Shown piece by piece: positions 6,480 to 46,919 of a DNA stretch of 46,919 nt. Both the position numbers and the translations under genes were made by a program. Position 1 is the stretch's first letter; every line of letters begins with the position of its first letter. The notes under the pieces were generated by a model. The model saw nothing but the letters and a program-made list of their open reading frames with translations. It had not been told where the DNA came from and did no database searches. Source of the stretch: Acidobacteriota bacterium (GTDB taxonomy: Bacteria > Acidobacteriota > Vicinamibacteria > Vicinamibacterales > UBA2999); the NCBI GenBank assembly GCA_046765795.1, contig JBKPRH010000183.1, forward strand, positions 1 to 46,919, given 5' to 3'.

Positions 6480-7778
6480 GTGACAACCCACGACGTCCGG
6501 ATGCAGGGCTTCACGCGCCGTCACACGGTGCAGGAAGCCTTGTCGTGGCTCGATGCGCAGCTGCGGACGCTCGATGCCGAAGACGTGCCGCTGCGCGAAG
6601 CGGCCGGCCGCGTCCTCGGCTCTCTCGTCACCAGCGACATCGACGTTCCTGGATTCGATCGCGCGACCATGGACGGCTACGCGGTCGTCGCCGATTCGAC
6701 CGAAGGCGCCACTCCTTACAACCGCATTCCGCTCGCGGTCGTCGGCGACGCGATGCCTGGAGCGCCGTTCACGCGAACGGTCGCGCGCGGCCAGGCCGTG
6801 CGGATCATGACCGGCGCGCCAATGCCTTCGGGCAGCAATGCGGTCCTGCCAGCGGAGTCGGTCGATACGAATGACCGTAGAGGCGGGTCTGTAGACTCGC
6901 CTTCTTCAGACGCGCCCACAACGATCGCCGCCATCTCTGAAGTTTCACCACAAAAAAACGTCGGCCACCGTGGCGAAGACATCGTCCGCGGCACGACGCT
7001 GCTCGAAGCCGGTCGCGTGCTGCGGCCGCAGGACGTTGGCGTGATGAGCTCGATTGGCCTCGCGATGACGCGCGTGATCCGACGACCACGGGTGCGACTC
7101 GTCATCACCGGTAACGAGCTACTTCCGGCGGGTACACCGCCGCACGACTATCAGATCGCCGACGCAAACGGGCCGATGCTCGCCGCGCTCGTCGAGCGCG
7201 ATGGCGGCGTCGTAGACTTCCCCGACCTCGTTCGCGACGAGCCACAGGCCTTGCTCGAGGCACTCGGCGTCACCGCCCAAACCCCGGAGCCCACAGGCCA
7301 AAGCCCGGACATCATCATCGTCTCTGGCGGCTCCAGCGTCGGCATCGAAGATCTCGCGCCGATGCTCGTCGCCAAACATGGCGAGCTAGCCGTGCACGGC
7401 ATCGCGATGCGTCCGAGCAGTCCGACGGGGATGGGCACGCTGGGGCCGCGACTGGTCTTCCTGCTACCCGGCAATCCCGTCTCTGCTCTGTGCGCCTACG
7501 ATTTCTTTGCCGGCCGCGCCATTCGCGCGCTCGGTGGACGCTCGACGCAGTGGCCGTATCGCGCGGTGCGCGGCACACTCACCCGCAAGATCAGCTCGCC
7601 GATCGGACGACTCGACTACGCGCGCGTGCGTCTCGACTCCGGGCGCGTCGAACCGCTGTCGGTTGCCGGCGCATCGCTGCTCTCCTCGACCACGCGCGCC
7701 GACGGGTTCGTGATCGTCGATCAGGACAGCGAAGGATATGCGGCTGGCTCCGACGTGGAGGTGTGGCTGTATGCGTGA
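6480..7778 (+). CDS. moeA: Molybdopterin molybdo/tungstotransferase MoeA (paralogue 1)
   Basis: PGFDRATMDGYA, IMTGAPMP, TGNEL, SGGSSVG and LPGNPVS motifs. GTG start at 6480. Confidence 0.92.
   Translation: MTTHDVRMQGFTRRHTVQEALSWLDAQLRTLDAEDVPLREAAGRVLGSLVTSDIDVPGFDRATMDGYAVVADSTEGATPYNRIPLAVVGDAMPGAPFTRTVARGQAVRIMTGAPMPSGSNAVLPAESVDTNDRRGGSVDSPSSDAPTTIAAISEVSPQKNVGHRGEDIVRGTTLLEAGRVLRPQDVGVMSSIGLAMTRVIRRPRVRLVITGNELLPAGTPPHDYQIADANGPMLAALVERDGGVVDFPDLVRDEPQALLEALGVTAQTPEPTGQSPDIIIVSGGSSVGIEDLAPMLVAKHGELAVHGIAMRPSSPTGMGTLGPRLVFLLPGNPVSALCAYDFFAGRAIRALGGRSTQWPYRAVRGTLTRKISSPIGRLDYARVRLDSGRVEPLSVAGASLLSSTTRADGFVIVDQDSEGYAAGSDVEVWLYA
6877..6901 (+). repeat. Family A GTAG REP inside the moeA1 coding sequence (reads RRGGSVDSP)
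   Basis: GTAGAGGCGGGTCTGTAGACTCGCC versus GTAGAGGCGGGTCTTCAGACCCGCC at 43873. Confidence 0.85.
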
Positions 7779-9756
7779 TCAGGAGCAATTCCTTCACGTC
7801 CTCGATCGCGACGAAGCGGAGCGGCGATTCCGCGCGGCTGTCGACCTCGCCCCACGCGGTATCGACACAGTCGGACTCGATGCGGCGCTTGGCCGTGTGC
7901 TCGCCGCCGACGTCGTCTCCCCGGTTGACGTGCCGTCGTTCGATCGTGCAAACGTGGACGGGTTCGCCGTCATCGCCGAGGATACGTTTGGCGCGTCAGA
8001 GGAAGTGCCGCGCCCTATCCACCTCGGCGACGAGCACGTCCACACCGGGGTCGTTCCACGAACGATCGTTCGACCGGGTGAGGCTGTCGCGATCGCAACC
8101 GGCGGCATGATGCCGCGCGGTGCGGACGCAGTGGTCATGATCGAACACGCCGATGTCGTGTCTGGCTTTAGCCAGACCCGCGATCGTCCGGCTGCCGCCT
8201 CCGCGCCAGGCGCTTCGGCGCCCAGGGAAGCCGGACACCACATCAACGTGGGCCGGGCGGTGACGGCAGGCAGCGGCGTCTCGTTTGCTGGCACCGACAT
8301 CACTGCTGGCGAGACCGTACTCCGGCGCGGAACGATCCTGACCAGCCGCGACACCGGTGTACTCGCGGCGATCGGCGTCGCGTCTGTCGATGTCTGGCGA
8401 AGGCCAGTCGTCGCCATCCTCTCAACCGGCGACGAGATCATTCCGCCTGGTCAGCCTATGCAGCCGGCGCGCATTTACGACTCGAACGCGCAGGTCCTGG
8501 CCGATGCGGTGCGCGAGCTTGGCTGCGAACCTCGTCGCCTTGGCATCGTCGTGGACGATATCGAACAGCTGCGCGCGAAAGTGCGCGACGCGCTGGCGAT
8601 GGCGGACGCGGTGCTGCTTTCGGGTGGAACGAGTAAGGGTGCCGGCGACGTCTCGTATCGAGTTGTCTCAGAGCTGACTGGCCCAGGCATCGTCGCGCAC
8701 GGCGTCGCGCTCAAACCCGGGAAGCCGATCTGTCTCGCAGCAACCGGCCGCAAACCAGTCGTCGTCCTTCCAGGCTTTCCGACGTCGGCGATCTTTACCT
8801 TCCACGAGTTTGTCGCCCCGGTGTTGTCGGCGATGGCCGGCCGCGGCCTCGAGGAACGATCGACGGTGCAGGCGCGCCTGGCGGTGAAGGTGAATAGCGA
8901 GATTGGGCGAACGGAATACCTCCTGGTCGGCTTAGTTGACGCGGGAAACGAGACATTGGCCGCGTATCCGATGGGTCAGGGCTCGGGCAGCGTCACGACG
9001 TTCAGTCGCGCCGACGGCTTCACGACGATCGGACGTCACGAGGAGATCGTCCAGGCCGGGACGATGGTGAATGTGCAGTTGCTGGGGCGGGAGCTGCAGC
9101 TGGCTGATCTCGTCGTGATTGGCAGTCACTGCATCGGACTCGACTATCTGCTCGGTGAGCTCGAGCACGTCGGCGTGCGCGCGAAGTTCCTGGCTGTCGG
9201 CAGTCTTGCCGGACTCGAAGCGGCGAAGCGCGGCGAGTGCGACATCGCCGGCGTTCACCTTCTCGATCCCCAGACGGGTGAGTACAACCGACCATTCCTC
9301 ACGCCGGAGCTCACGCTGATTCCCGGTTACGGGCGGCTGCAAGGCATCGTGTTCAGGCACGACGACGAGCGATTTGAATTACGCAATGCCAAGGAGGCGA
9401 TCGCGGCGGCCATAGCCGATCCGTCATGCGTGATGGTGAATCGCAACCAAGGCAGCGGCACGCGTGCCTTGATCGATGGACTGCTCGCAGGCCGGAAGCC
9501 GCCTGGCTATGCCGTGCAGCCGCGCAATCACAACGCGGTTGCAGCGGCCGTCGTCCAGCATCGCGCTGATTGGGGCGTCACGCTCGACACAATCGCGCGC
9601 GGCGCCGGCCTTGGCTTCATCCCCGTCCAACACGAGCAGTACGATTTCGTGTCGCCACGGACACGTGCGGAACGTCCCGCCGTCAAGGCGTTCGTCGAAC
9701 GACTTACGGATCCCACCACGCGCAACGCGCTCGCACGTCTGGGGATGCGAATCTAA
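7771..9756 (+). CDS. moeA: MoeA fused to a C-terminal PBP/LysR-type substrate-binding domain (paralogue 2)
   Basis: PSFDRANVDGFA, STGDE, SGGTSKG, KPGKP and LPGFPTS, followed by a PBP-like domain (GSHC, GSLAGL, NRNQGSGTR, EQYDF). Overlaps the moeA1 stop. Confidence 0.92.
   Translation: MRDQEQFLHVLDRDEAERRFRAAVDLAPRGIDTVGLDAALGRVLAADVVSPVDVPSFDRANVDGFAVIAEDTFGASEEVPRPIHLGDEHVHTGVVPRTIVRPGEAVAIATGGMMPRGADAVVMIEHADVVSGFSQTRDRPAAASAPGASAPREAGHHINVGRAVTAGSGVSFAGTDITAGETVLRRGTILTSRDTGVLAAIGVASVDVWRRPVVAILSTGDEIIPPGQPMQPARIYDSNAQVLADAVRELGCEPRRLGIVVDDIEQLRAKVRDALAMADAVLLSGGTSKGAGDVSYRVVSELTGPGIVAHGVALKPGKPICLAATGRKPVVVLPGFPTSAIFTFHEFVAPVLSAMAGRGLEERSTVQARLAVKVNSEIGRTEYLLVGLVDAGNETLAAYPMGQGSGSVTTFSRADGFTTIGRHEEIVQAGTMVNVQLLGRELQLADLVVIGSHCIGLDYLLGELEHVGVRAKFLAVGSLAGLEAAKRGECDIAGVHLLDPQTGEYNRPFLTPELTLIPGYGRLQGIVFRHDDERFELRNAKEAIAAAIADPSCVMVNRNQGSGTRALIDGLLAGRKPPGYAVQPRNHNAVAAAVVQHRADWGVTLDTIARGAGLGFIPVQHEQYDFVSPRTRAERPAVKAFVERLTDPTTRNALARLGMRI
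8155..8241. repeat. Composite in-frame REP doublet in moeA2; the second REP is interrupted by a CCGCC..GCTTCGGCG element
   Basis: gtcgtgtctggctttagccagac (8155-8177), then gtccggct-[gccgcctccgcgccaggcgcttcggcgcccagg]-gaagccggacaccac (8186-8241). Same family as 44910-44932. Confidence 0.75.
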
Positions 9757-9951
9757 GAGCTGTCGATGGGACGCGCACGCGGTGCGCGAATCGAATCGGC
9801 TGCTCGGAGGCGCCAGGCCCGCAGGTTGCGCCGTGCCGCCGCACGCTCACGATAGGGTCCCCGCAAAGTTGTATCAGGGGCGGGCTGACCTAATTGTGAC
9901 GCTCGGCTCCATCGACGCAACGCCGGCCTCGGCTCCCTCCGTGCAGCTCGG

Positions 9952-10313: not shown

Positions 10314-10389
10314 AATGTTTCTCCTCAAAACGCTCATCGCCCGACTCCTACTGCACGCGCGGTGCCATGTGTGCGGCTGAGGCTCTAAG

Positions 10390-13770: not shown

Positions 13771-13795
13771 GGCGGGTCTAAAGACCCGCCTCTAC
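13771..13795 (-). repeat. Family A GTAG REP
   Basis: ggcgggtctaaagacccgcctctac, identical to 44444-44468. Confidence 0.9.
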
Positions 13796-17227: not shown

Positions 17228-17229
17228 CC

Positions 17230-18484: not shown

Positions 18485-21400
18485 ATGTCAAACGCACAAG
18501 CTGAAATCGCCCGTGTGCTCGCCATCGAGCCGGAGGGGTCGCAGGCAGAAGCGATCCGTCAGTTCGTCCGCGACGAGCTCGGTGCGGAGCTGGTGCTGGT
18601 GTCTTCGGCGTATGCGGCCGTTGTCGCCATCAACCGGCAGACACCGGACGTGGTCCTGTTCAGCGAATCGATCACCGAGAAGCACCGCGATCGCGTCCTC
18701 GATCACCTGCGATCGACCATTGCGCCAGCGGTTCCGCAGCGGATGACGCTGCCCTCGCTGAAAAGTTGCGATCGCGCGATACTGGCCCAACAGATCAACG
18801 CGATGGTCGCGCGCGCCCAGGAAGCGCGCCCCCGCAGTGCGTCGGCACCAGCACCCGGCGCCGCAGCGCCGACGCCCTCGGCACCAGCAGCCAAGGTCGC
18901 CGCGCCTGCACCGCCGGCCAAAGCCGCCGCTCCTGCACCGGCAGCCAAAGTACCGCCTTCACCACCGCCACCCGTCGAGACGATCACCCCGCTGCCGGAC
19001 GAGAAGTTTCCGGTTCCCGCCCTCGAGCTGTCCTCCACGTCAGCGCCCGAGCCAATCACGGGGATCGAATTCGTCGCGGACGAGGTGAACGTTGTCGACC
19101 TGCAGGTCAGCATCGAGAGCGACACTGACGAATCAATCGATGCCACGGTCGCATCGCTCAATGCCGAGGAAGAGGGCGACGAGCTCCTCATCCCGATCGA
19201 TCACATCGCGCAAGCGCCATCAAGCCGGCGCCGCGCGCCGGCAGACGATGCCGTGGATGCGGAGGTTCACGCGGCGGAGATCGCCCTCGTGCAGGCGATG
19301 GCCGAGGCCAAACTCGCCGCCGAACTCGAACGCGTGCGCGCGGAGGCCGCCGAGCAGCGTGCCGCGGAATTGGCGCGCATCGAGCACGAAACCAACACCG
19401 CACGTGAGGCCGCGGTCGCGCAGGCGCGTATGGCCGCGGAGGCCGAGGCGCGAGATGCGCTGAACGCCGAACTCGCGCGCGTACGCGCAGAAGCGGAAGC
19501 GAAGCTGACCGACGAGCTCACGCGCGTCAAGAGCGACGCGGAACTCGCCCTCGCCGAAGAGCTGAATCGCTCGAAAGCCGAAGCGGAGTCGGCACAACTC
19601 GCCCAGATCGCGCGTCTGCAGGCGGAAGCCGAATCGGCGCGCCAGGAACAACTGGCTCGATTGCAGGCCGAGGCCGAATCGCGTCAGGAACAACTCGCCC
19701 AGTTGCAGGCCGAAGCCGAATCCGCGCACAAGGAACAGATCGCGCGTCTGCAGGCCGAGGCGGAATCAGCGCGTGCGCAAGAAATGGCCCGCATCCAGGC
19801 CGAAGCCGAAGCGATGAAGGCCGCGGCTGCGGAACAGGCCGCGAAAGCCCTCGCCGACGAAGTGGCGCGCGTCAAAGCGGAGACCGATGCGCGTGTCGCC
19901 GCGGAGCTCGCCCGCGTCCGTCAGGAAGTTGACGCGCAGATGCAGGCGGAAATGGAACGCATGCGTGTCGAGGGCGAACAGGCTCGGCGCGCACACGAGG
20001 AATCCACCACACGCGAAGCCAAACGACAGGCCGAGGAAGCCGCCGCTCGCGCGCTCGCCGCTGAAGTCGCGCGCGCGCGTGCCGAAGCCGAAGCCAAGGT
20101 GCAGGCCGAAGTCGAGCGTCTCCGGCAGGAGACCGAGGCGGCACGCATCGCACAGGAGCAGGCGCATCTCGAAGCCGAGAAGGCGCGAGATGCTGAACTG
20201 CGTCAGGCGCGCGAGGCCGCGGAGAAGGCGGCCGCCGCCATCGCCGAGGCCGAAGTCGCTCGCGTACGCGGCGACGCAGATGCCCGTCTGAAAGCCGAAC
20301 TCGAGCGGATTCGCAAGGACGCCGACGACACGCGTCGCGCGCAGGAGCAGGCGCAGCAGGCAGCAGAGCAGGCCCGCGAGAAAGCGGCGCAGGACGCGAA
20401 GCGCGCGGCCGAACAAGCCGCTGCACAAGCGGTCGAAGCCGAGGTCGCGCGCATCCGTGGCGAGGCCGACGCGCGTTTAAAAGGCGAGCTCGATCGTCTC
20501 CGTCAAGAGGCGGAGCACGAAAAGGCCAGGAGCGCGATCGAAACACAGACACTGCGCGAGGCTGCGGCTCAAGAAGCGCAGCGCGCCGCGCAGGAAGCCG
20601 CCGCTCGCGCGCTCGAAGCGGAAGTGGCCCGCGTCAAAGCCGAGGCCGATTCAAGTCTCGGCGCAGAACTCGAACGTATCCGGCTCGAAGCCGAGCAGGC
20701 TCGCCGCGCACAGGAGCAAGCCCAGCGCGATGCCGATCGTCAGCGCGACGTCGCCGCGCAGGAAGCCCGCAAGGCTGCGCACGAAGCTGCTGCCCGCGCG
20801 CTCGAGAGCGAGGTCTCACGCGTCCGCGAAGAGGCAGAGGCAAGCCTGCGTGGCGAGCTCGATCGACTCCGCAAAGAAGCCAGCGAAGCGCGTCTCGCTC
20901 AGGCACAGACGCAACTCGAAACCGAAACCCTTCGCGAACTCGCTGCGCAGGAAGCGCGCATGGCGGCTCAGGAAGCCGCCGCCCGCGAGCTCGGGGAGGA
21001 AGTGCAGCGCGTCCGCGCGGAAGCCGATGCGCACCTGAATGCGGAGATCGCGCGGGTGCGTGAGGAATCCGAACGCGCACGACTCCAGCAGCAGGACTCG
21101 GCGCGCGACCAGGAAGCGCGGCGAGAGGCCGACCAGGAAGCGGCTCGCGCGCTCGAAAGCGAAGTCGCGCGCGTCCGCGCCGAATCCGAAGCCGGCCTGC
21201 TCGCGGAGCTCGAACGGCTGCGCAAGGAAGCCGCCGAAGCGCGGCGCGCCCACGAAGACACGCAGCGAGAAATCGAGCTGCTTCGCGAAGGGGCCGAGAT
21301 CGAAGCCCGTCAGCAGGCCGAAGAGGCTGCGGCTCTTGCCCTCGAAACAGAGGTGGCGCGCGTCAAGGCCGAGGCCGATGCGCGGTTGAACGAAGAGCTC

Positions 21401-23005: not shown

Positions 23006-24061
23006 ATGAAGAAGCTTCTCATCATCGCAGCGTGTTTCGCGACGGCAATCGCCGTCGCGGCGCAGAAACCCTATAGCGCTCCTCGCACACCGTGGGGCCA
23101 TCCCGACTTGCAGGGTGTCTGGACGACCGACGATGCCCGCAGCGTGCCGCTGCAGCGCGCGCCGGAATTCGGCGAGCGCCGACTGCTCACCGATCAGGAG
23201 TATGCGGATCGCAAACGGCGCGACGATGAGACACGAGGGGACGTGCGCGTCGCGGCAGGCACGTTCGTCGGCGAGGTTGGGTCGCGCACGCATCGTCAAA
23301 CGTCACTGGTGATCGAACCAGCCAATGGGCGGGTGCCAGCCCGAACGCCGGCTGCGGATCAGCGCATGGCGGCGATCAACAAGGCGGTCAATCCACTGCT
23401 CCCGCTGACGTGGGAGGACCGCAGTCTGTTCGAGCGCTGCATCAGCCGCGGTCCCCTTGCCTCACTGCCCACTCTGTACGGCAACGGACTCCGCATCGTG
23501 CAGGCGCCAGGCATCGTCGCGATCAGTCACGAGATGATTCACGAGGCGCGCATCATTCCGATCGACCCATTCGACAAGCTCAGGGTCGACGGTGAGCGAA
23601 GTCGAACCGTCGACGGCCGTCTGCCCAGTGAGCGCTTGCACAGCTACATGGGCTACTCCACCGGCAAGTGGGACGGCGACAGCCTGGTGATCGAGACCAG
23701 TGGCTTCACCAACAAGACGGCACTCGCCGGCACCCGGCACACCGAGAAGCTGCGCATCGTCGAGCGACTAACGCGCACGGCGGACGACACGATCACGTAT
23801 GAAGCGACCGTCACCGATCCCGAGACGTGGATCGCGCCGTGGAAAGTGTCGGTTCCTTTGACCACGCAGCCCGGATACGAGGTGTATCCGTACGAATGCC
23901 ATGAAGGGAACAATGCCCTCCGCAACATGCTGAGCGCGGCACGTGCCGAAGAGAAAGTGATCGAGGAGTATGTGAAAAAGGGGCTTCCGCCTCCCCCGCT
24001 GGCGCGTCCCAACGATGGCGAGATTCTCCCCGCCGATCCCTCGTTCGGCCGCCGCCGGTGA
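23006..24061 (+). CDS. Secreted protein of unknown function (PRTxxGxPDLxGxW family; paralogue of 43028-43828)
   Basis: Signal peptide; PRTPWGHPDLQGVW, GYSTGKWDGDSLVIET and YECHEGN. Confidence 0.8.
   Translation: MKKLLIIAACFATAIAVAAQKPYSAPRTPWGHPDLQGVWTTDDARSVPLQRAPEFGERRLLTDQEYADRKRRDDETRGDVRVAAGTFVGEVGSRTHRQTSLVIEPANGRVPARTPAADQRMAAINKAVNPLLPLTWEDRSLFERCISRGPLASLPTLYGNGLRIVQAPGIVAISHEMIHEARIIPIDPFDKLRVDGERSRTVDGRLPSERLHSYMGYSTGKWDGDSLVIETSGFTNKTALAGTRHTEKLRIVERLTRTADDTITYEATVTDPETWIAPWKVSVPLTTQPGYEVYPYECHEGNNALRNMLSAARAEEKVIEEYVKKGLPPPPLARPNDGEILPADPSFGRRR
23567..23614. repeat. TTCGAC..GCTCA / TGAGC..GTCGAA palindromic element inserted in frame (PFDKLRVDGERSRTVD)
   Basis: ttcgacaagctca-gggtcgacgg-tgagcgaagtcgaa; the paralogue at 43028 reads TDGRKLP with no such insert. 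Confidence 0.7.
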
Positions 24062-27021: not shown

Positions 27022-27028
27022 CCCGTGG

Positions 27029-28423: not shown

Positions 28424-28432
28424 ACGTCTCCT

Positions 28433-29611: not shown

Positions 29612-29618
29612 CCGCGAA

Positions 29619-30173
29619 TTATCCTCCGATGACGCCCTGAATGTGCGCGGTCAGCAGGGCCATGGCTTCACGCTCTCTCTCGCCCGCCGTTTTGTCCACG
29701 ATCACCTGAAGCCGGGCGATCTCGCTGCGGACGAACTCGTGCTCAAGGAGATGCAGGCGCGTCGAATAAATCGCCGCTTCGAGCACGGCGTGACACGCGC
29801 GGTTGAAACCGATGAACTCGCGCCGGAAGCCCCGATGCACGACGCTCGTCTCGATGCGCGACCGCGGCGGCGTCGAATCCACGGTCCGCACCTCGAGCTC
29901 GCGCCACGAACAGCAATCCGCCAGCACGACACCTCGGACAATCTTCGCCGGCACCGTGGCATAGATCGGGTTCGAGATCGCTGCCTGCGCAAACACCCGC
30001 ACATCGTCAGTGAGATTGACGATCGCACTGCGCACGGCAGTGACGTTGCGATAGGTCGCTGTATCGAGGAACGGCTTGAGGACAATGACCTCGTCACCCC
30101 ACTCGACACCCATCGGCGCACAGTTGATACGGCCGTCCTCGGCGACGGTAGTGACGATGCTTTCGATGATCAC
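29619..30173 (-). CDS. DUF447 family protein (associated with H4MPT gene clusters)
   Basis: IIESIVTT...NCAPMG, KPF..T.TY.N and FIGFNRA.HAVLEAAI..TRL. GTG start at 30173. Confidence 0.82.
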   Translation of the reverse strand: MIIESIVTTVAEDGRINCAPMGVEWGDEVIVLKPFLDTATYRNVTAVRSAIVNLTDDVRVFAQAAISNPIYATVPAKIVRGVVLADCCSWRELEVRTVDSTPPRSRIETSVVHRGFRREFIGFNRACHAVLEAAIYSTRLHLLEHEFVRSEIARLQVIVDKTAGEREREAMALLTAHIQGVIGG

Positions 30174-30182
30174 GCGGGCCCC

Positions 30183-30284
30183 GCACCGACACGCGTCAGC
30201 CGGATTGCACCGACACGGCCGGTCCCAAGGACCGGCCCTACCTCGCACCGACCGCGAACGCCCGATTGCACCGACACGCGTCAG
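30183..30284. repeat. GTAGGGCC REP (family C, 30217-30241) within four GCACCGAC-containing direct repeats
   Basis: Minus strand GTAGGGCCGGTCCTTGGGACCGGCC; gcaccgacacgcgtcag at 30183 and 30268; gattgcaccgacacg at 30203 and 30264. Confidence 0.8.
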
Positions 30285-30976
30285 TCTCGATTGGGCGGCG
30301 GCACGAACGGCCGCCACCGCATGTCTTCAGACGGCGTCCACGGCAGAAAGAGCTCTCGTGCCGTCATGGCGCCGTCGGCGTGTCGCGGCAGCGTGTCGAT
30401 GCGCGCGCGGTCGCCGTCGAGAAATCGCGCCACCATCGCATAGCCGTGCTCGGTGGCTGCCGACTCGGGATGGAATTGCACCCCAATCACGGGATGCTCG
30501 CGGTGCTCGAAGGCCATCACCGCGCCATCGTCATTTGATGTGGCCATCACGCGCAAGTCTGACGGCATCGTACCGGGCGCGATCACCAGCGAATGATAAC
30601 GGGCGACGCGTAGCGGCGACGGAAGTCCGGCGAAGATCCCGGAGCTGTCATGCGTGATGAGCGATGTCTTGCCGTGCATGGGATAACCGGCACGCACCAC
30701 GTCGCCACCGTAGGCCGCGCCGATGCATTGGTGACCCAGACAGACGCCGAGGATCGGCGTTGTCGGACCGAAGCGGCGAACGACCTCCGTGGAGATGCCG
30801 GCCTCTGAGGGCGTGCACGGACCCGGTGAGATCACGATGTGACTCGGCCCGAGCTTCTCGACCTCGTCGATGCCCATCTCGTCGCTGCGGCGGATCACCA
30901 CCTCGCGGCCCAGCTCACGGACGTAACGGGCGAGGTTGTAGACGAACGAGTCTCGATTGTCGAGAACCAGAATCAT
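30281..30976 (-). CDS. pabA: Aminodeoxychorismate synthase glutamine amidotransferase subunit
   Basis: ILVLDNRDSFVYNL, SPGPC, GVCLGHQ, HGK, RYHSL and GVQFHPES. Confidence 0.88.
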   Translation of the reverse strand: MILVLDNRDSFVYNLARYVRELGREVVIRRSDEMGIDEVEKLGPSHIVISPGPCTPSEAGISTEVVRRFGPTTPILGVCLGHQCIGAAYGGDVVRAGYPMHGKTSLITHDSSGIFAGLPSPLRVARYHSLVIAPGTMPSDLRVMATSNDDGAVMAFEHREHPVIGVQFHPESAATEHGYAMVARFLDGDRARIDTLPRHADGAMTARELFLPWTPSEDMRWRPFVPPPNRD

Positions 30977-31134
30977 TGTTGAATTACTGATTGTTGATTG
31001 GTGATTTGTTGTTGATTGGTGATTTGGGATCGTTGATTGAGCGCGGCAACCAGCTGGTGGGGCGTCGTCAATCAACGAATCGGAGAATCGGCAATCAACA
31101 ACTATTCAACAATCAAAGATCCCTGAATCATCAA
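30975..31134. repeat. Inverted pair of heptamer tandem arrays (GTTGATT-like / AATCAAC-like)
   Basis: Left arm gttgattggtgatt repeats, right arm aatcaac/aatcggc repeats; fills the pabB-pabA spacer. Confidence 0.8.
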
Positions 31135-32579
31135 TGGGCCGCGGCGAGGGCATCGATCAGCGCCCTGGCCTTGTCAATAGTCTCGCGATATTCCTGTTCG
31201 GGATCGGAATCCGCGACGATTCCGCCTCCTGCACTGAAGTATACGCGGCCGTCGCGGACGATCGCGGTGCGGATGGCGATGCTGGTATCGAGATCACCAG
31301 TCAGGCTGAAGTAGCCGATCGAGCCGCAGTAGATGCTTCGCTGAGACGGTTCGAGCTCGGCGATGATTTCCATCGCGCGCAGCTTCGGCGCGCCGGTAAT
31401 CGAGCCGCCAGGAAACGCCGCGCGCAGCAGATGGAACGCATCGTAACCGGGCTCCAGCTGGCCGACGACGGTCGAGACCAGATGATGGACGGTGGCATAG
31501 CGCTCGAGCGAGAAGAGTTCGGACACCCGCACGGTGCCAGGCGCACAGACGCGCGAGAGGTCGTTGCGCATCAGGTCGACAATCATCAGGTTCTCGGCGC
31601 GATCTTTGGCGCTCTCGGCAAGCGCCTGGCCCAGCGCCGCATCGTGCTCGGGGCCGACACCGCGCGGCCGCGTGCCCTTGATCGGACGCGTCTCGACAAA
31701 GCCACTGCGAGTCACGTGAAGAAAACGCTCGGGCGACGCGCTGATCACGCTCGCATCGGGCGTCTCGAGAAACGCCGCAAACGGCGCGGCGTTGCGCCGG
31801 CGCAGCCGCGAGTAAAACTCCCACGGTGACCCGGGCAGCGGCGCCTCAAACCGTTGCGACAGATTCGCCTGAAAGATGTCGCCGGCGAAGATGTAATCGC
31901 GCACGCGCTGCACGGCGGCGAGATAGTCGCCGTGGGTGAACGAGGAACGCAGCTCGTACGAGGGATTCCACCAGCCCCCTTCGACAACATGCGATGGTGC
32001 AAAAGTCCGCTCCGATCGAGGCCCGTCCAACAGGACGGGCCCTACTCCAGACGTGTCCGGCGCCGCCTGCAGCCGTTCGCGGACGTCGGTCGCGCGTGCG
32101 CGGGCTCGAGCGGCGCGATCGGCTCCAGCTTCAGCAGGCATGCCCGTCGAGATCAGCCATGCACGCGACTCGACGTGATCCCACGCGAGCACCCAGTCAT
32201 AGAGGCCCATCACGACATCGGGCAGCGCGATGTCGTCGTACCGCGGGGCGGGCAGACGTTCGAGTGTCAACCCCCAGTCGTACGCAATGTAGCCAGCGGC
32301 TCCACCCTGAAAGGGTGGAAGTCCGGCGATCGGTTCGGTGTGGAACGGCGCCAGCCGCGTACGCACCTCGTCCAGTGTGCCACTCGATCCTTTGCGTTCG
32401 ATGACATCGATCGGATCGGCAGTGAGAAACGAATATCGTCCGAGCCTGGTGGTCGTTGATGCGCTATCGAGGAAGAGGCGATACGGCAGTCCCGCGAGTT
32501 GCTCGCAGCACCACGCCGGGTCAGGCACCGGCGACAATTCTTGGACGAGCGGCGTCACGCGAGTCTCACTCGCCGACAT
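31131..32579 (-). CDS. pabB: Aminodeoxychorismate synthase component I
   Basis: FLDS, GRYS, PFQGGAAGYIAYD, SASPERF, TRPIKGT (PabB-type PIKGT), AENLMIVDLMRNDL and FPGGSITGAPK. Confidence 0.9.
   Translation of the reverse strand: MSASETRVTPLVQELSPVPDPAWCCEQLAGLPYRLFLDSASTTTRLGRYSFLTADPIDVIERKGSSGTLDEVRTRLAPFHTEPIAGLPPFQGGAAGYIAYDWGLTLERLPAPRYDDIALPDVVMGLYDWVLAWDHVESRAWLISTGMPAEAGADRAARARARATDVRERLQAAPDTSGVGPVLLDGPRSERTFAPSHVVEGGWWNPSYELRSSFTHGDYLAAVQRVRDYIFAGDIFQANLSQRFEAPLPGSPWEFYSRLRRRNAAPFAAFLETPDASVISASPERFLHVTRSGFVETRPIKGTRPRGVGPEHDAALGQALAESAKDRAENLMIVDLMRNDLSRVCAPGTVRVSELFSLERYATVHHLVSTVVGQLEPGYDAFHLLRAAFPGGSITGAPKLRAMEIIAELEPSQRSIYCGSIGYFSLTGDLDTSIAIRTAIVRDGRVYFSAGGGIVADSDPEQEYRETIDKARALIDALAAAH
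32020..32045 (-). repeat. Family C GTAG REP in frame in pabB (reads VGPVLLDGP)
   Basis: Minus strand GTAGGGCCCGTCCTGTTGGACGGGCC: GTAG foot plus a perfect stem. Confidence 0.78.
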
Positions 32580-32585
32580 CGTGAA

Positions 32586-32617
32586 AACCACTCACCACCA
32601 ACCACTCACCACCAACC
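32586..32617. repeat. 14-bp (2x heptamer) tandem repeat AACCACTCACCACC
   Basis: Two exact copies plus a partial third, in the spacer upstream of pabB. Confidence 0.75.
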
Positions 32618-32619
32618 GA

Positions 32620-34086
32620 TCAGTCGGACGCGCGCGGCCGCCGTGGCCGTTGTGTCAACTGCACGTGCTCGCGCACGTCCTCGTCCGGTGGTGTGAGGTA
32701 GCCCCACGTCAAGGCACCTTCCTGACGATACGTCTTGCCGAGTGTCACCGCGAGGCTCGCTTTCGCGAGTTCCTTCCCGAGGTAAAACGCGTGCGACGGA
32801 TCCTCCACCTCGAGCTGCGCGAAGATCGCCTGGATGTCGGTCCCGCGCACGAAGCGCTCACTGTTGAAGACGGTAATGGCCTCGGCGTCGGCGAAGATGC
32901 GGTAGTTGGGATCGGTAATTGCCGACTGCAATGCGCGGAGTTCCTGCTCCGAGTAACTGAGCACCACAGGATCCTTCACGGTGACGAGACGATCGTCGAC
33001 GCCTTTGGGCACCGTGTGCTTCGTCACCGCGTAGTGCATCAACCGCCTGGCCACATCCACCTCTCGGACGACGCCTCGCGCCCACGGAATCACTTCCGTC
33101 GTCAGCACACGGCGAATGCCCAGTTCCTGGCACACGGCGATCAGCAGTGCGTTCACGCCTGTCGAATCTGCGGCTGTCAGTTCCGTCAGATTCCCGATGC
33201 CCATCAACATCTCCGCCGCCGGCCATCGCCGCCGGGCTTCGGCGTAGCGCTCGAGCGAAGCCATGAATCCCATCCCGATTGGCTCGAGGATCGGATCGAT
33301 CAGGAACGGCACACCCCAGGCCTGCAGCTTGGCCACCGTGGGCTCGATCGAATCCACTCCACCGCCCATGTCGGGAATCACGACGAAGCGAGCGCCGCTG
33401 ACGGCGAGGGCGCCGCTGACGGCGAGGGCCTGCGCAACGTCAATGTTGGAGCCGTTGACGCTGAGGACGAGCTCGGCACCCGCTTCAACTGCCGTTGTGA
33501 TCTCGCTCGGGTCGAGCGAGTCCACGCTCACGCGCATTCCAGCCTCGACCAGCTCGGTCACTACATCGGCAAGTTCGGGGAACGGGAGTCCCGGTGTACA
33601 GCCGATGTCGATGATGTCGGCGCCGGAGTCCCGGTAACGCGCGGCCTCGCGTCGAATGGCCTCGCGTGTCAGGCGAGGGGCGTTGTTGATCTCGGCAACG
33701 ATCTCGATATCCCATGCACCGTACTCGCGCGCTTCCGCTGCGCGTCCGAAGTATCGGGGGATATCGCGCAGATCCTTCGGCCCCTTCTCCACTGCCACGC
33801 CAAGCTTCTCGGCCACGACAGCTGTGTGGCCTTCACACAAGCCGGGAATCATCACGAGGTCGACGCCAGGTGGCGCTTCAAGTGATTTGGCGATCCACGA
33901 CGTGGTCATGAGCGCGGCGACCGTGATCTTGAGGACGGCGACGTCGTACTGAAACGGCGGAGACATCTCGGCGAGCACGCGCCGGAGCGCGGGCTCGGCG
34001 AGCTTGCCGGTTACGAAAAGAGTGCGACCGGCCGGTCGCGCCGAAGCCTCTGGCGAAGGCGGACCGGCCCTACCTGCATCCGTCAT
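32620..34086 (-). CDS. Dihydropteroate synthase-like protein of H4MPT clusters (DUF6513 / Orf20 type)
   Basis: FVTGKLAEPAL, VAALMT, KGPKDLRDIP, GADIIDIGC, SVDS, DPILEPIG and GIGNLTEL..ADS.GVN. Confidence 0.85.
   Translation of the reverse strand: MTDAGRAGPPSPEASARPAGRTLFVTGKLAEPALRRVLAEMSPPFQYDVAVLKITVAALMTTSWIAKSLEAPPGVDLVMIPGLCEGHTAVVAEKLGVAVEKGPKDLRDIPRYFGRAAEAREYGAWDIEIVAEINNAPRLTREAIRREAARYRDSGADIIDIGCTPGLPFPELADVVTELVEAGMRVSVDSLDPSEITTAVEAGAELVLSVNGSNIDVAQALAVSGALAVSGARFVVIPDMGGGVDSIEPTVAKLQAWGVPFLIDPILEPIGMGFMASLERYAEARRRWPAAEMLMGIGNLTELTAADSTGVNALLIAVCQELGIRRVLTTEVIPWARGVVREVDVARRLMHYAVTKHTVPKGVDDRLVTVKDPVVLSYSEQELRALQSAITDPNYRIFADAEAITVFNSERFVRGTDIQAIFAQLEVEDPSHAFYLGKELAKASLAVTLGKTYRQEGALTWGYLTPPDEDVREHVQLTQRPRRPRASD
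34030..34073 (-). repeat. Nested repeat: family C REP with a family D element in its loop, in frame at the N-terminus of the DHPS-like gene
   Basis: Minus strand GTAGGGCCGGT-CCGCCTTCGCCAGAGGCTTCGGCGCG-ACCGGCC; compare the intact copy at 30217. Confidence 0.78.
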
Positions 34087-34448
34087 CCGCGTGGATCGCC
34101 GCTACGCACCCACTTGTTCGGCGTTCCCTCGAGCGCCTCACCTTCCTTCGGCCGCCACAGCACGACGTCTTCGATCTTCCGCGCCAACGAGAAGTCCTTG
34201 TCGGTGATGCCGCCGGCGCTGTGCGTCGAGAGCTTCACCGTGATGCGTCCCCACGTCACCGAGAGGTCCGGATGGTGGTACGCAGCCTCGGACAGATACC
34301 CGATCGAGTTCACCAGCATCAGCGTCGTCGGCCATCCGTCTGTTTTGTAGACGCGGCGGATCCAGCCGTCTTCGAGGTACCAGCCGGGCAGCTCCTTCAG
34401 CTTCTCGGTGATCTGTGCTTCGTCGTATGTCGGTTCTTTCTTGGCCAT
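34083..34448 (-). CDS. pcbD: Pterin-4-alpha-carbinolamine dehydratase
   Basis: EAAYHHPDL, THSAGGITDKDF.LA..IE; ATGA overlap with the DHPS-like gene. Confidence 0.88.
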   Translation of the reverse strand: MAKKEPTYDEAQITEKLKELPGWYLEDGWIRRVYKTDGWPTTLMLVNSIGYLSEAAYHHPDLSVTWGRITVKLSTHSAGGITDKDFSLARKIEDVVLWRPKEGEALEGTPNKWVRSGDPRG

Positions 34449-36489: not shown

Positions 36490-36513
36490 CCTTTGACCTT
36501 TGACCTATCGAGA

Positions 36514-38982
36514 TCACCACGATGTCGTGACGTGCGCGAGCACGCGGCGACCGAGCAGATCACCGCCGAACATCTCGTAGTGCTCGTTGTCGAACAGATT
36601 CGACGCATCGACGCCGGCACGCACGCGCTTCGTGATCAGATAGGCGGCCTGCACGTCGGTCAGACCGTACGCCGGAACCGGACCGGCATAGATACCTGAC
36701 AGCCAATCGAACCCATCCGTCCACCGATAGCGGACGCTCGCGTCGAGCCGAGGCGCGACGTAGGAGAGCGCAAACGACGCCTGATGCCGCGGCGTGTTAG
36801 GAAGGATCGGCACGTCAGGGGCCTGCAGCGTGAGGTCGTAATCGAACAGCGTGTAGTTCACGTCGACACGAAAGCGCTCGGGCAGCGACGTGGTGACCCC
36901 CACTTCGAGCCCTTGCGTGCGCGCCTTCCCAAAGTTGCCGTTCGACAGCAGCGCGAACGCCGGCGAGCCGTCCTCGAGATTACTCAACGACGCGCCGAAC
37001 CCGGGCGGAAGAATGGCGTTCAGCGTCGCCTGCAACGCGGCCGCGACCGCGGGGCTCACACCTGCCGGCGGACGATACGGCCCGTAATCCGGATTGAGAC
37101 GTCCGAGACTGGTACCGACCTGCGGCAGCAGTCCGCTCGTGAAGGTCTCGAGGTGATTCAGGAAGTACGTGACGCCGACCAGCGTTCGGCGCGCAATGAG
37201 ACCGCTGTATCCGACGTCGAGGCCGGTGACCTGTTCGACCTCCAGGTGAGGATTGCCAACCGCCAGCACCGGAATATGCTCGAAGCCGAGTCTGACGCCG
37301 CCAAGCGCCGGTGCGAACGCCTGCTCGATCGCAGAGAGATCCAGCGGCGGCGCGACCGCAGCCTGAAGCCGCGTCTCCGCGATCGTCGGCGCCTTGAACG
37401 CGCGGGCCACGGACACTCGCAGCGTGTGCGAGGGCGCCAGACCGACGATCACCGCGCCACGCGGTGAGAACGTCGCGTCATACAGGCTGCTGACTTCGAC
37501 CCGCGCGGCGCCTGACACCTTGACGCGATCGGTGAACGCGTAGTCGGTCTGTCCGAATACCGCGCCATCGTTGACGATTTGTGCCTCGGGCCAGATCGTC
37601 TCGACACCGGCCGGGTTCTTCGAATCGGCTTTCAGTCGCCCGATCGAGAGCCCACCGAAAAATCGGCCTTTCCCGCGGCTGAACGACCCCTGCGTGTCCG
37701 CGCTCGTCTGCAGCAGGTAGCCGTTGTCGTACGAGCCCACACCGGACGACAAGCCCAGCGAGTTGTTCAGATCCTCAGCGCTGAGCGCGCTGCTCACCCG
37801 CCACCGCGGCGTCGTGAACTGTCCTCGCGCCCACGGCTGATTCATCCCCTCGGTTTGATAGCGTCCAAGGTTGGTGGTGGAGACGTGCCCCTCGCTGTGC
37901 GACGCGCCTCCCTCGACGACGAGCAGCGAGCCACTCGCCAACGGCCGATCGACGCGGGCGGAGCCATAGAACAGGCTGACGTGATCCTGTGCGAGCGGTA
38001 CGACCTCGCGAGGCAACCCTTCGTACTCGACCGACGTGACACGAGACCGTGCGAAGTCGCCACTGTGCTGCGCCCCGCCCATGACTCGAAAATAGGTGCT
38101 TGCTCCGAGTTTCCCGGCATGACGGCCGTCGAACCGGCTGGTCCCCAGCTCACCGGCGGTGATCCGCGCCTGACCACCTGGGTTTCCAATCGCCGACTTC
38201 GTCTTGATGCTCATGACGCCGTTGAACGCACCCGCTCCATACAGCGCACTGCCGGCGCCGCGGACGAATTCGAACGAGTCGATCTCGTCGAGCGCAAACG
38301 ACACACCGGCCCAATTCGTGACGCCCATCACCGCAATCTGCGAGGTGTCACGGTCGTCCACGAACGTCCGCACGCGACGATTGGACATGTCGTTGAATCC
38401 GCGCGCGTTGACATTGAAGTCGTAGAGACCGCTTTGGACCACATTCACGCCCGGCGCATACGCGACCAGGCGCGGGACTTGACCCTGTGCCGCCAAACGG
38501 CGCACCTCGTCGGCATCGAGATGCGTGACCGGCGCCGGCGCATCGACGGCACGTTCGACCTGCCGCGACGCGGCTTCGACGACGAAGCTCTCGACGAATG
38601 ACAGCGGCCACTCAACCTTCGTCACAACTGTGGCCGCGGCCAGCGCGGTCACCGTCACCATCGACGTCGTTGAATAGTTGGCGAGCGTGAAGATCAGGGT
38701 GTAGGTGCCCGGCCGAACATTGGAGAAGACGTAGTCGCCACCGGTCGATGTCCACTCGGCAGCGCCGGTCTCCTGAATCACGACTTGCACTCCGGCCAGC
38801 GGCGTCTCGTCGTCTAGCCGACTGACGTGACCGGTTATTCGCCCAGTGTTTTGTCCAGCCGCGACGCCTGGCACGAGGAGCAGCACACACGCAGCCAGTG
38901 GCAGCAAACGTCGCCAGATCCGGCTATAGCCGGACAGTACGATTCTCATCAGGATTCGATTCTTGTCGGGATTCGTGTGCAC
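36514..38982 (-). CDS. TonB-dependent receptor with N-terminal carboxypeptidase-regulatory-like domain (start may be 38949)
   Basis: Signal peptide; plug motifs (APGV, NARGF, EFVRGAGSALYGAGAFNGV), NPHLEVE, NLFD and C-terminal Trp. Confidence 0.9.
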   Translation of the reverse strand: MHTNPDKNRILMRIVLSGYSRIWRRLLPLAACVLLLVPGVAAGQNTGRITGHVSRLDDETPLAGVQVVIQETGAAEWTSTGGDYVFSNVRPGTYTLIFTLANYSTTSMVTVTALAAATVVTKVEWPLSFVESFVVEAASRQVERAVDAPAPVTHLDADEVRRLAAQGQVPRLVAYAPGVNVVQSGLYDFNVNARGFNDMSNRRVRTFVDDRDTSQIAVMGVTNWAGVSFALDEIDSFEFVRGAGSALYGAGAFNGVMSIKTKSAIGNPGGQARITAGELGTSRFDGRHAGKLGASTYFRVMGGAQHSGDFARSRVTSVEYEGLPREVVPLAQDHVSLFYGSARVDRPLASGSLLVVEGGASHSEGHVSTTNLGRYQTEGMNQPWARGQFTTPRWRVSSALSAEDLNNSLGLSSGVGSYDNGYLLQTSADTQGSFSRGKGRFFGGLSIGRLKADSKNPAGVETIWPEAQIVNDGAVFGQTDYAFTDRVKVSGAARVEVSSLYDATFSPRGAVIVGLAPSHTLRVSVARAFKAPTIAETRLQAAVAPPLDLSAIEQAFAPALGGVRLGFEHIPVLAVGNPHLEVEQVTGLDVGYSGLIARRTLVGVTYFLNHLETFTSGLLPQVGTSLGRLNPDYGPYRPPAGVSPAVAAALQATLNAILPPGFGASLSNLEDGSPAFALLSNGNFGKARTQGLEVGVTTSLPERFRVDVNYTLFDYDLTLQAPDVPILPNTPRHQASFALSYVAPRLDASVRYRWTDGFDWLSGIYAGPVPAYGLTDVQAAYLITKRVRAGVDASNLFDNEHYEMFGGDLLGRRVLAHVTTSW

Positions 38983-43828: not shown

Positions 43829-43838
43829 TCTTCGAGAC

Positions 43839-43897
43839 GTAGAGGCGAGTCTTCAGACTCGTCTCCCATGACGTAGAGGCGGGTCTTCAGACCCGCC
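43839..43897 (+). repeat. Two tandem family A GTAG REPs (43839-43863 and 43873-43897)
   Basis: GTAGAGGCGAGTCTTCAGACTCGTC and GTAGAGGCGGGTCTTCAGACCCGCC. Confidence 0.9.
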
Positions 43898-43902
43898 CAC
43901 AA

Positions 43903-44397
43903 TTACGGCGGACGCCAATCGATCAGCGCATCCCGCAATTCTTCTGGACTGAATCTCGACGATCCCGAGAAAGGGTACGTAGCACCCTCGGCAACGAGCC
44001 CCGCTCTGAATGGGTTATTGAGGATGTATCGCACGATGCCGACCACGGGATCGTGTTCCCGTACGACGTGGTCGTAGTAGCCCTCTTGCCACAGACGCGT
44101 AACTGCTCGTTGCTTCCACGCGAATGCCGTCTCCTGCTTCCAGTCATGCATAACCGCCTTTAGATCGGCGTCATTTGCGAGGCCCTCAAGCAGGAGATGA
44201 ACGTGGTCGGGCATCACACAGTACGCAATTACCGCAAACGGCCTCACTTCGAAGAATTGCGTAATCTGCCCCGTCATCCAGGTCGCCGCCGGTTCGCCTT
44301 CGAAGCACTTCTGCCGTCGATTGGTGCAAATCGTCAGGAAATACAGGTACGCGCCGATGTAAGAGAAGCCAGTTAGCCGTTTTGGACGATTCGCCAT
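43903..44397 (-). CDS. rayT: REP-associated tyrosine transposase (RAYT / TnpA-REP, HUH Y1 family)
   Basis: YFLTICT, VMPDHVH (HUH), WQEGYYDHVVR, YILNNP..AGLV and YPFS; flanked by inverted GTAG REPs. Confidence 0.9.
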   Translation of the reverse strand: MANRPKRLTGFSYIGAYLYFLTICTNRRQKCFEGEPAATWMTGQITQFFEVRPFAVIAYCVMPDHVHLLLEGLANDADLKAVMHDWKQETAFAWKQRAVTRLWQEGYYDHVVREHDPVVGIVRYILNNPFRAGLVAEGATYPFSGSSRFSPEELRDALIDWRPP

Positions 44398-44443
44398 ACC
44401 CGGTGAGTCGTCCAAACGCGACGCCAAGGCAGGTCTGATTCAA

Positions 44444-44468
44444 GGCGGGTCTAAAGACCCGCCTCTAC
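44444..44468 (-). repeat. Family A GTAG REP
   Basis: Minus strand GTAGAGGCGGGTCTTTAGACCCGCC. Confidence 0.9.
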
Positions 44469-44522
44469 GACCCGCCAGCGTCACAAACACAGAACTACTC
44501 CGTTCTACTCACAGGAGCCAGA

Positions 44523-45116
44523 GTGACTACGATCGCGGGTAGTTGGATGAAAGCCGTTCACCGACCGCTTGCCTCGCCGGCGACGCCAACGGGCCCCCCG
44601 CCGGCGACGACATCGACCACGGTCGATCCGCAGGCCGAGACGCTGCGGCTGTTTCAGGAACATGGCACGGCGCTGTATCGCTTCTGCAGGAGCGTGCTGC
44701 GCCACACGGGCGATGCCGAGGACGTCGTGCAGGAGACGTTCCTCAAGCTGCTCCATCACCTGCAACATGATGGCGACGCCCGCAATCTGAAATCGTGGCT
44801 GTTCACCGTCGCGGCAAACGGGTGCCGCGATCGGACGCGCTGGCGGCTGCGCTGGCTGCCGTGGACAGCCGAGCGTGACGACAGGACGGTAGGTCCGATC
44901 GACGAAGAGGTCCGCCTCAAGGCGGACACTACACATGCAGATCGCGCGCGCAGAGCATTCCGCGCACTCGCACCACGCGATCGTTTGCTGCTCTCGCTCC
45001 GCGCCCAGGGACTTTCATACAAGGACATCGCAGCCGCGTCAGGAATCCGCGAGCAGTCGGTTGGCCGTCTGCTGGCGCGAGCCTTGGACCGCTGGAGGAA
45101 ACAATGCGTTGCTTGA
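44523..45116 (+). CDS. ECF RNA polymerase sigma-70 factor
   Basis: Region 2 (DAEDVVQETFLK, SWLFTVAAN.CRD) and region 4 (GLSYKDIA..SV..LL.RA); AGGAG SD before GTG. Confidence 0.9.
   Translation: MTTIAGSWMKAVHRPLASPATPTGPPPATTSTTVDPQAETLRLFQEHGTALYRFCRSVLRHTGDAEDVVQETFLKLLHHLQHDGDARNLKSWLFTVAANGCRDRTRWRLRWLPWTAERDDRTVGPIDEEVRLKADTTHADRARRAFRALAPRDRLLLSLRAQGLSYKDIAAASGIREQSVGRLLARALDRWRKQCVA
44910..44932 (-). repeat. GTAGTGTCC REP (family B) in frame in the sigma-factor linker (reads VRLKADTT)
   Basis: Minus strand GTAGTGTCCGCCTTGAGGCGGAC: GTAG foot plus a perfect stem. Confidence 0.8.
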
Positions 45117-46174: not shown

Positions 46175-46175
46175 C

Positions 46176-46919
46176 TTGTCGCGCCGTAGCCTCGGCGAAG
46201 GCGGAACTGCCGCGATCGAGACGCGAGGGCTGACGAAGTACTACGGCCCGGTCGTCGGCCTCGAGAACCTATCGCTCGAGGTCGCGCAAGGCGAGGTGTT
46301 CGGCTTTCTCGGCGCGAATGGCGCCGGCAAGACGACCACCATCCGCATGCTGCTCGATCTCGTGCGGCCGACCAGCGGCACGGCCTCGATTCTCGGGTTC
46401 GATTGTCATCGTCAGGGACTCGAGGCACGTCGCCGCGTTGGCTATCTCCCCGGCGAGATGCCGTTCTATCCCGAGCTGACCGGCGCACGGTACTTGCGAT
46501 TCCTCGCGTCGCTTGGCGACACGCCACCTGCGCCGGCGCGCCTGGCGTTTCTGCTGCGGCGCTTCGACGTCAGCGATCTCGATCTCAACCGCCGCATGCG
46601 CGATTACTCGCACGGGATGAAGCGCAAGCTCGGACTCATCCAGGCGTTGATGACCGAACCGCGCGTGCTGATCCTCGATGAACCGACCTCCGGTCTCGAT
46701 CCGCTGATGATCGAGGCGTTCAGCGAGACCATCGACGAGCTCGCACGATCGGGACAGACGACGATATTTCTGTCCTCGCACATCCTGTCGGAAGTCGATC
46801 GTATCTGTCAGCGAATCGGCCTGGTTCGCGGCGGCCAACTCGTGGCCGTGCGGACACTCAGTGAACTGCGAGCGGCGGCGCCGCGGCGCATGACCGTGCT
46901 GTTCTCGACGCCGGTGAAT
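46176..46919 (+). CDS. ABC-2 type transporter ATP-binding protein (3' truncated by the window)
   Basis: Absent from the ORF track. Manual translation from TTG 46176 gives IETRGLTKYYG, GANGAGKTT, YSHGMKRK, LILDEPTSGLDP and SSH. Confidence 0.9.
   Translation, partial: MSRRSLGEGGTAAIETRGLTKYYGPVVGLENLSLEVAQGEVFGFLGANGAGKTTTIRMLLDLVRPTSGTASILGFDCHRQGLEARRRVGYLPGEMPFYPELTGARYLRFLASLGDTPPAPARLAFLLRRFDVSDLDLNRRMRDYSHGMKRKLGLIQALMTEPRVLILDEPTSGLDPLMIEAFSETIDELARSGQTTIFLSSHILSEVDRICQRIGLVRGGQLVAVRTLSELRAAAPRRMTVLFSTPVN
46180..46204 (-). repeat. Family D element at the ABC ATPase N-terminus (reads SRRSLGEGG)
   Basis: Minus strand CCGCCTTCGCCGAGGCTACGGCGCG; compare 22965 and 34037. Confidence 0.72.

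Follow-up and report, generated by a model that had tools for sequence, protein, structure and literature searches.

How do palindromic repeats come to lie, in frame, inside conserved genes? The question is raised by a 46,919-nucleotide stretch of Acidobacteriota DNA (the window), which is contig JBKPRH010000183.1 (C183) of assembly GCA_046765795.1 (G000; Vicinamibacterales, UBA2999). A first-pass annotation, made from the letters alone, had pointed out seven in-gene palindromes in the window, belonging to five families (A to E), some of them with the GTAG stem foot of repetitive extragenic palindromes (REPs), the substrates of REP-associated tyrosine transposases (RAYTs, TnpA-REP). Our analysis indicates that the REPs, likely spread by RAYTs, probably land regardless of frame, and that selection probably keeps those additions that are free of stops, consist of whole codons and fall at tolerant sites.

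The assembly comprises 6.54 Mb in 509 contigs and is 94% complete. Vicinamibacterales records provided both the nearest relatives of the window RAYT and the named homologues of two other genes, in keeping with a host of that order. A 16-mer found in 20 copies across it, which we take to be a library adapter end, is a sign of minor contamination. The gene set was called with a self-trained codon model (5,513 genes, 89% coding); the caller overlooked the extracytoplasmic function (ECF) sigma factor and RAYT genes of the window, so that genic counts are slightly low. Comparison was made with 2.36 Mb of the 5.7 Mb of a relative, G041 (median best-hit protein identity 87.5%, synonymous divergence, dS, approximately 0.55). 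Copies were called by family pattern and a stem requirement, against a null of two codon-shuffled copies of the coding DNA and the reversed genome.

In-gene palindromes of the window

The seven elements within genes are as follows.

6877..6901, + strand: family A GTAG REP in moeA1 (gene 6501-7778), in frame, at codons ~126-134 in a loop within the N-terminal part of MoeA
8155..8241, copy 8155-8177 (+) and copy 8186-8241 (-): family B dimer in moeA2 (gene 7771-9756), in frame
23567..23614, + strand: pair of family D (non-GTAG) elements in a secreted-protein gene (23006-24061), a 48-nt in-frame insertion
32020..32045, - strand: GTAG REP of family C, in frame in the linker between the two domains of PabB (gene pabB, 31131-32579)
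34030..34073, - strand: family C stem enclosing a hairpin of family E, at the N-terminal end of a DUF6513/pterin-binding gene (32620-34086)
44910..44932, - strand: GTAG REP of family B, between regions 2 and 4 of the ECF sigma gene (44523-45116)
46182..46204, + strand: non-GTAG element of family E, around the start of an ABC ATPase gene that extends from 46176 to the end of the contig

All seven were found where the first-pass annotation had placed them, each read through in the frame of its host gene and each situated, as it had proposed, in a loop, linker or terminus. Pfam matches were obtained for the two MoeA proteins, PabB, the DUF6513/pterin-binding protein, the ECF sigma factor and the ABC ATPase; the secreted protein matched no family. 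The division into three families with a GTAG foot (A, B and C) and two without it (D and E) was also borne out, E having a GTAG inside its stem. When folding was compared with that of shuffled sequences, the five GTAG-footed elements were found to form hairpins (z -1.8 to -4.3), and the two non-GTAG elements, D and E, folded no better than the shuffles (z -0.85 and -0.33, respectively).

The moeA1 loop was shorter in relatives G005, G001, G009 and G008 and in PDB entry 1wu2, and the corresponding position of G041 held an A copy that had diverged. The second B copy of moeA2 (8186-8241) contained an E-like hairpin within its loop. In PabB the element lay between the Pfam domains Anth_synt_I_N (aa 24-141) and Chorismate_bind (aa 218-470); because the linker is of about equal length in G041, it is a shared or replaced copy with respect to that genome and not a clean insertion. 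The ATG of the DUF6513/pterin-binding gene (34086) overlapped the stop codon of the preceding gene, and only the E-like part was present in G041. In the sigma factor, the element separated region 2 (aa 43-106) from region 4 (r4_2, aa 141-189). The statement that none of the elements breaks a frame was correct in that open frames were found at all seven; it must be qualified for the ABC ATPase, whose start region differed from that of G041 by 22 nt, not a multiple of three, and lacked the likely GTG start of G041. Only with TTG 46176 as the start codon would this element be coding; the gene itself is cut off by the contig end.

Depletion in genes, reading frame and purifying selection

Genome-wide, 644 copies were found (B 267, C 131, A 86, E 49, G 41, D 27, F 20, T 17 and H 6) compared to 14 matches in the two codon-shuffled copies together (approximately 7 each) and 4 in the reversed genome. 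The families are thus repeated across the genome, as had been supposed. In family D, 17 of the 27 copies passed a flank filter, and approximately 10 look like chance matches that inflate the genic counts. Families F, G and H are three further GTAG families, seldom internal to genes. The B pattern was present in 13/18 other genomes of the genus and in 0/12 genomes of other families; the C pattern was present in 5/60 other genomes of the order.

Of the 561 loci formed by the 644 copies, 63 lay in frame in the interior of genes, 28 were N-terminal and 46 C-terminal, 204 were intergenic and 9 stood at contig edges. The remainder were upstream of a gene with an in-frame start possible (63) or without one (61), or overlapped a gene end (87). 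When random positions were scored in the same way, 396/600 were internal, which makes the elements approximately sevenfold depleted inside genes. For A, B and C alone, 40/412 loci were internal (approximately 10%) and 44 terminal, and 11/151 were internal in the compared part of G041. These families are 20-40 nt palindromes with GTAG at the stem foot, dispersed in high copy number and mostly extragenic, in agreement with the expectation that GTAG REPs usually lie outside genes. Genes with an internal element made up approximately 1% of all genes, and up to 2.5% when termini were counted. Both orientations and several frames were used by the in-gene elements, and 75/551 GTAG-type feet supplied the TAG stop codon of a gene. 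Under a looser definition, 93/617 loci held 2-4 copies.

Among the matches listed between G000 and G041, length differences at internal sites with both flanks aligned were a multiple of three at 38/39 sites, compared to 31/79 at intergenic sites; 12 more internal sites were of equal length. The unit lengths are not inherently multiples of three. The insert lengths that the first-pass annotation had proposed to count therefore indicate that selection likely keeps the reading frame at coding sites. Moreover, the ratio of nonsynonymous to synonymous divergence (dN/dS) in 20 host genes with internal A, B, C or E elements had a median of 0.103 and a maximum of 0.23, compared to a median of 0.115 in 399 control genes (p 0.24), and the hosts are conserved genes, not pseudogenes. 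These findings show that coding REPs lie in frame in genes under purifying selection and are lacking in some orthologues. At 37 genic A, B and C sites, the corresponding site in G041 held the same family in 20 cases, no element in 14 and another family in 3; at 86 other sites the numbers were 32, 50 and 4, respectively. Several sites common to both genomes, including that of the sigma gene, differed by paired changes in both arms. No target motif could be called at the insertion junctions relative to G041, the sequences being too diverged. The inserts are probably translated and mostly neutral.

Loop turnover, transposase genes and nested hairpins

Sets of 120 homologues each were collected for MoeA2 (the best 120, 76-100% identical), the sigma factor and the secreted protein. 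In MoeA2 the insert occupied the loop equivalent to that of MoeA1 and was 33 aa long here compared to 9 aa in 41/120 homologues, that is, 24 codons over the empty loop. In a structure model of mean pLDDT (predicted local distance difference test) 69, insert residues 132-153 were low-confidence coil between strands 127-130 and 157-160. Length varied at only six spots of the alignment. The insert loop was filled in 79/120 homologues (75 distinct sequences) and empty in 41; a second strand-strand turn, near residue 393, was filled in 75/120 (68 distinct) and empty in 45; and at least one of the two was filled in 98/120. On a tree from which these loops had been left out, the state changed at least 24 times (insert loop) and at least 27 times (second turn), 40/116 inner branches having support under 80 and gain not being separable from loss. 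The loops were scored by length only; judged by eye and left uncounted, the fills included B elements in either orientation, dimers and arrays, nested composites, and low-complexity repeats unrelated to them. A similar mix of different repeat-like sequences was seen in the PabB linker of genus relatives.

The secreted protein was 351 aa long here compared to 335 aa in 76/120 homologues, with an exact 16-aa insert relative to homologue P0002; its structure model (mean pLDDT 43) was not usable. A short direct repeat was observed at the bounds of the D insert (23567-23614), and homologue P0001 had a shorter form in which two residues are duplicated, which hints at target duplication upon D insertion. 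In the sigma factor, a B-type peptide was found in 89/120 homologues; 11 were unparsed and 20 were untagged, some of these degenerate and some short and apparently empty. The element was a perfect hairpin in all three DNA copies (here, G041 and L269), with paired changes. Metagenome DNA of sigma orthologues provided 1 close locus out of 80, too few for covariation. The sigma insert is old and kept across a clade.

Outside the seven elements, the window holds the following features, including an intact RAYT gene.

43903..44397, - strand: intact RAYT (TnpA-REP) gene encoding the HuH, WQ and catalytic Y-x-x-x-NP motifs; Pfam Y1_Tnp, E 1e-11
43839..43897 (43839-43863, 43873-43897), + strand: two family A REPs downstream of the RAYT
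44444..44468, - strand: family A REP upstream of the RAYT, completing the REPtron layout
30217..30241, - strand: family C REP in a 114-nt insertion between pabA and a DUF447 gene, likely non-coding
13771..13795, - strand: intergenic family A REP
1811..1836, - strand: family A REP directly upstream of the likely start of an fdh beta-like gene
38918-38940: degenerate hairpin resembling family B, within the N-terminal signal-peptide region of a TonB-dependent receptor; doubtful, a decayed copy or chance

Six further strict loci were thus counted beyond the seven, four of them extragenic (including those at the flanks of the RAYT), one 5' of the fdh beta-like start and one, doubtful, in the TonB receptor. 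The window held 13 loci compared to 4.0 expected, with 4 called internal compared to 0.45 expected, approximately three times the genome average, and it therefore overstates the load of the genome. The excess gives no significant support for local hopping from the window RAYT; the enrichment on this contig (P 3e-4) rises to approximately 0.15 after multiplying by 509 contigs.

The Y1_Tnp core, HuH, W-Q guide motif and Y-x-x-x-NP together identify the window gene as a TnpA-REP. It is one of four Y1 transposase genes in the assembly (window, C454, C283 and C403), and it was flanked by family A REPs, as were the RAYTs of relatives L005, L007 and L008. The gene on C454 was flanked by B; it is frameshifted and lacks the stretch that bears the WQ motif and the catalytic tyrosine. 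No C-flanked RAYT was found in the G000 assembly; an intact one was present in G041 (L247), and L010 had the same layout, which may not be independent. At the G000 site orthologous to L247 a B dimer stood in place of the RAYT, and a different gene occupied the position of the G000 A REPtron in G041. When the RAYTs were listed with their flanks, A, B and C were each seen to flank a RAYT somewhere. The suggestion that other RAYTs serve B and C accordingly holds for the genus, through the B-flanked gene on C454 and the C-flanked gene in G041, and fails for intact enzymes in G000. Y1 genes were found in 34/36 genomes of the genus; G005 (78% complete) contained B copies and no Y1 transposase was found in it. 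The third gene, at C283 ~2100-3100, is of TIRYT type and lies between family T terminal inverted repeats; T copies were also observed in C-terminal coding regions, some of them common with G041. The fourth, Y1-like gene (C403 ~36500-37600) had short tandem GC-rich repeats at its flanks and no REPs.

Families D and E are not GTAG REPs, having no GTAG foot and flanking none of the four Y1 genes. Nested positions within GTAG stems were found for 3/17 D and 5/49 E copies, compared to 5/2,000 random positions; a different pattern returned 9 nestings in G000, of which one is doubtful, and 5 in G041. Nested copies are the minority, since in G041 the first test returned only 0/8 D and 1/27 E. Three near-identical composites of D within B, each on a different contig, suggest that composites move as units. 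A DUF559 nuclease was considered as the mobiliser of D and E and discarded, no match being present in G000. Directly upstream of both small GIY-YIG genes of G000, and on that side only, there were two E-like long-loop sequences each, compared to 0.1 expected, and no homologues of these genes were found in the relative DNA examined. A small GIY-YIG gene is a possible mobiliser of family E, which we offer as a lead. Both genes (C176 ~5120-5716 and C454 ~9410-9930) lie directly downstream of a near-identical tRNA-like sequence, presumably of Gln type, and an internal deletion disrupts the copy on C454.

Several neighbouring features were also observed. A 1,481-aa protein (18485-22930) contains some ten coiled-coil-like repeats of ~63 aa, rich in Ala, Glu and Arg, and has a PEGA domain at its C-terminus. 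Genes for Pterin_4a, the DUF6513/pterin-binding protein, pabB, pabA, DUF447 and a GHMP-kinase-like protein are clustered at 26017-34448, which we assume resembles a methanopterin-type pterin biosynthesis set. Between pabB and pabA there is an AT-richer inverted pair of heptamer-type tandem repeats (30974-31136), and a heptamer-type repeat forms the C-terminus of the GHMP-kinase-like gene (~26017-26050). Across G000, 99 perfect heptamer arrays were counted, 8 of them genic, and similar repeats occupy the MoeA and PabB loops in relatives.

Origin of the inserts and comparison with known systems

In the mechanism that we propose, REPs are likely spread by RAYT transposases with insertion indifferent to reading frame; the enzyme would nick a single-stranded hairpin and join it elsewhere, cleavage in vitro requiring the GTAG foot (PMC8266576, accessible parts). 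The in-gene copies are likely the tolerated minority that add whole codons and no stops in surface loops, linkers or termini. A resident REP would stay a substrate, and an invaded loop would be rebuilt by dimer and array formation, variant or family swaps, and deletion. D and E hairpins would use another mobiliser and sometimes travel nested inside GTAG stems. Several points weigh against this account. The 38/39 result is partly circular, internal sites having been defined by an open frame, and shared sites were counted from both genomes. Among the contigs listed from seven RNA runs with small word shares, which were fragmentary, none spanned an element, a result that speaks neither for nor against translation. 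B and C, the most abundant families, have no intact cognate RAYT in G000, and searches of that assembly by Y1 flanks and for DUF559 identified no mobiliser for D and E. Some of the MoeA2 state changes may be due to recombination between lineages or to errors in the tree; their minima stand without a shuffled-label control, on a homologue set biased to query-like sequences. RAYT-driven insertion at new sites in this genome is itself something that we infer from sequence.

How the same loops come to be filled again and again can be read in several ways. An invaded tolerant loop may be a standing landing pad, in which the resident REP is re-cut and rebuilt, so that the site passes through empty, single, dimer, array and nested forms (the last with a D or E hairpin within a GTAG stem) much more quickly than the remainder of the protein changes; the REP system would then diversify loops throughout the lineage and repeatedly at the same sites, an insert becoming fixed now and then, as in the ECF sigma linker, and composites would move as units. 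We put this forward tentatively. Tolerance alone, with random, independent insertion and no self-targeting, would make loops recur as the few places that accept residues, and it has a real though less than even chance of being the whole explanation. It agrees with the fact that the corresponding loop holds family A in MoeA1 and family B in MoeA2, and with the unrelated heptamer-type and low-complexity repeats that, by eye, gather there too. It is harder to reconcile with two loops of a 2-kb gene being filled in 98/120 homologues when 1-2% of G000 genes have any element, with the accumulation of dimers, arrays and nested composites at one point, and with the 20/37 genic sites common with G041, several with paired stem changes. 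Turnover in place without a RAYT, by gene conversion, hairpin-driven template switching or slippage, or allele exchange between strains, seems to us rather unlikely. The near-perfect B and C copies, abundant with no intact cognate RAYT in the assembly, the B copies of G005, and the direct repeat bounding the D insert all speak for it, but every GTAG family flanks a RAYT in this genus, Y1 transposases occur in nearly all of its genomes, and the GTAG foot is conserved beyond the stem.

That some inserts are adaptive, the hairpin tuning mRNA stability or translation or the peptide being co-opted, is improbable. The sigma linker is where it might apply, given the insert in 89/120 homologues and the perfect hairpins with paired changes, and the stop codons supplied by GTAG feet would also suit it; the strong depletion in genes, the use of both orientations and several frames, the commonness of insert-free close homologues, and the short, apparently empty sigma linkers do not. 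An origin of the inserts in assembly or binning error, or in pseudogene hosts, is hardly credible. The assembly is fragmented and includes adapter-like sequence among its repeats, but the elements recur at the orthologous positions of other genomes and proteins, an independent contig crosses the moeA1 element without a gap, and the dN/dS of the host genes is normal; the evidence across genomes refutes this explanation.

These findings extend coding REPs to an abundant, little-cultured group of Acidobacteriota, and the MoeA and PabB loops provide a natural series of empty and filled alleles for the study of REP spread, which is poorly understood. In practice, such inserts can mislead start-codon calls and plant spurious common peptides in unrelated proteins. 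If the landing-pad reading is true, a REP system diversifies protein loops lineage-wide at recurrent sites. A literature search, with most subscription journals outside its reach, found no paper on REPs in Vicinamibacterales.

The comparisons that follow concern the accessible parts of the papers cited. Intragenic GTAG and CGTC REPs were described by Di Nocera, De Gregorio and Rocco (2013, PMC3733652), most of them in Opitutus terrae and R. conorii; neutrality in linkers and loops was proposed there, and TAG stops from REPs were noted. To that description the present data add controls, namely in-gene depletion, the frame filter and normal dN/dS. The GTAG-17/18/19 families of O. terrae resemble those described here, with several GTAG families in one genome and in-frame singles and dimers in unrelated genes. 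By our count, supplement 3 of that paper contains 70 intragenic rows for O. terrae, compared to 63 internal and 74 terminal loci in G000. The unusually high load claimed in the first-pass annotation is therefore overstated, with approximately 10% of A, B and C loci internal, a window at three times the average and a total similar to that of O. terrae; the load is high yet not unprecedented. Our case differs from the O. terrae work in host lineage and in that turnover of the same loop was measured across homologues. Non-GTAG hairpins nest in GTAG loops here, and PMC3733652 describes REPs inside other palindromes and long complementary GTAG-14 loops, which are similar but not the same. The Rickettsia palindromic elements (RPEs; per PMC3733652) are likewise palindromic repeats in frame in conserved genes and scattered among orthologues; RPE-1 is longer, and RPE-4/6 are CGTC-tagged with no RAYT, whereas the units here are of 23-30 nt and three families are of GTAG/RAYT type.

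The REPtrons of Quentin 2018 (PMC6006769) and Corneloup 2021 (PMC8266576) share with ours the Y1 HuH, WQ and Y-x-x-x-NP motifs and inward-facing, GTAG-footed perfect hairpins, and a TIRYT-type gene with terminal inverted repeats is likewise found here, on C283. Unlike subclass 2.4 (PMC6006769/PMC8266576), the window RAYT gene, known here from its sequence, has no REP inside. Ssn GIY-YIG nucleases with SRM/NTS hairpins (PMC11893778) are a model, as a lead only, for non-GTAG hairpins tied to a small GIY-YIG gene; unlike Ssn, the G000 genes are flanked on one side only and placed after tRNA-like sequence. In-frame REPs have thus already been described in other bacteria, and the present genome is a new, rich example and not a new phenomenon. 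The new points are the lineage of the host, the measurement of turnover at loops that are filled repeatedly, the composites of nested hairpins and a sigma insert kept clade-wide.

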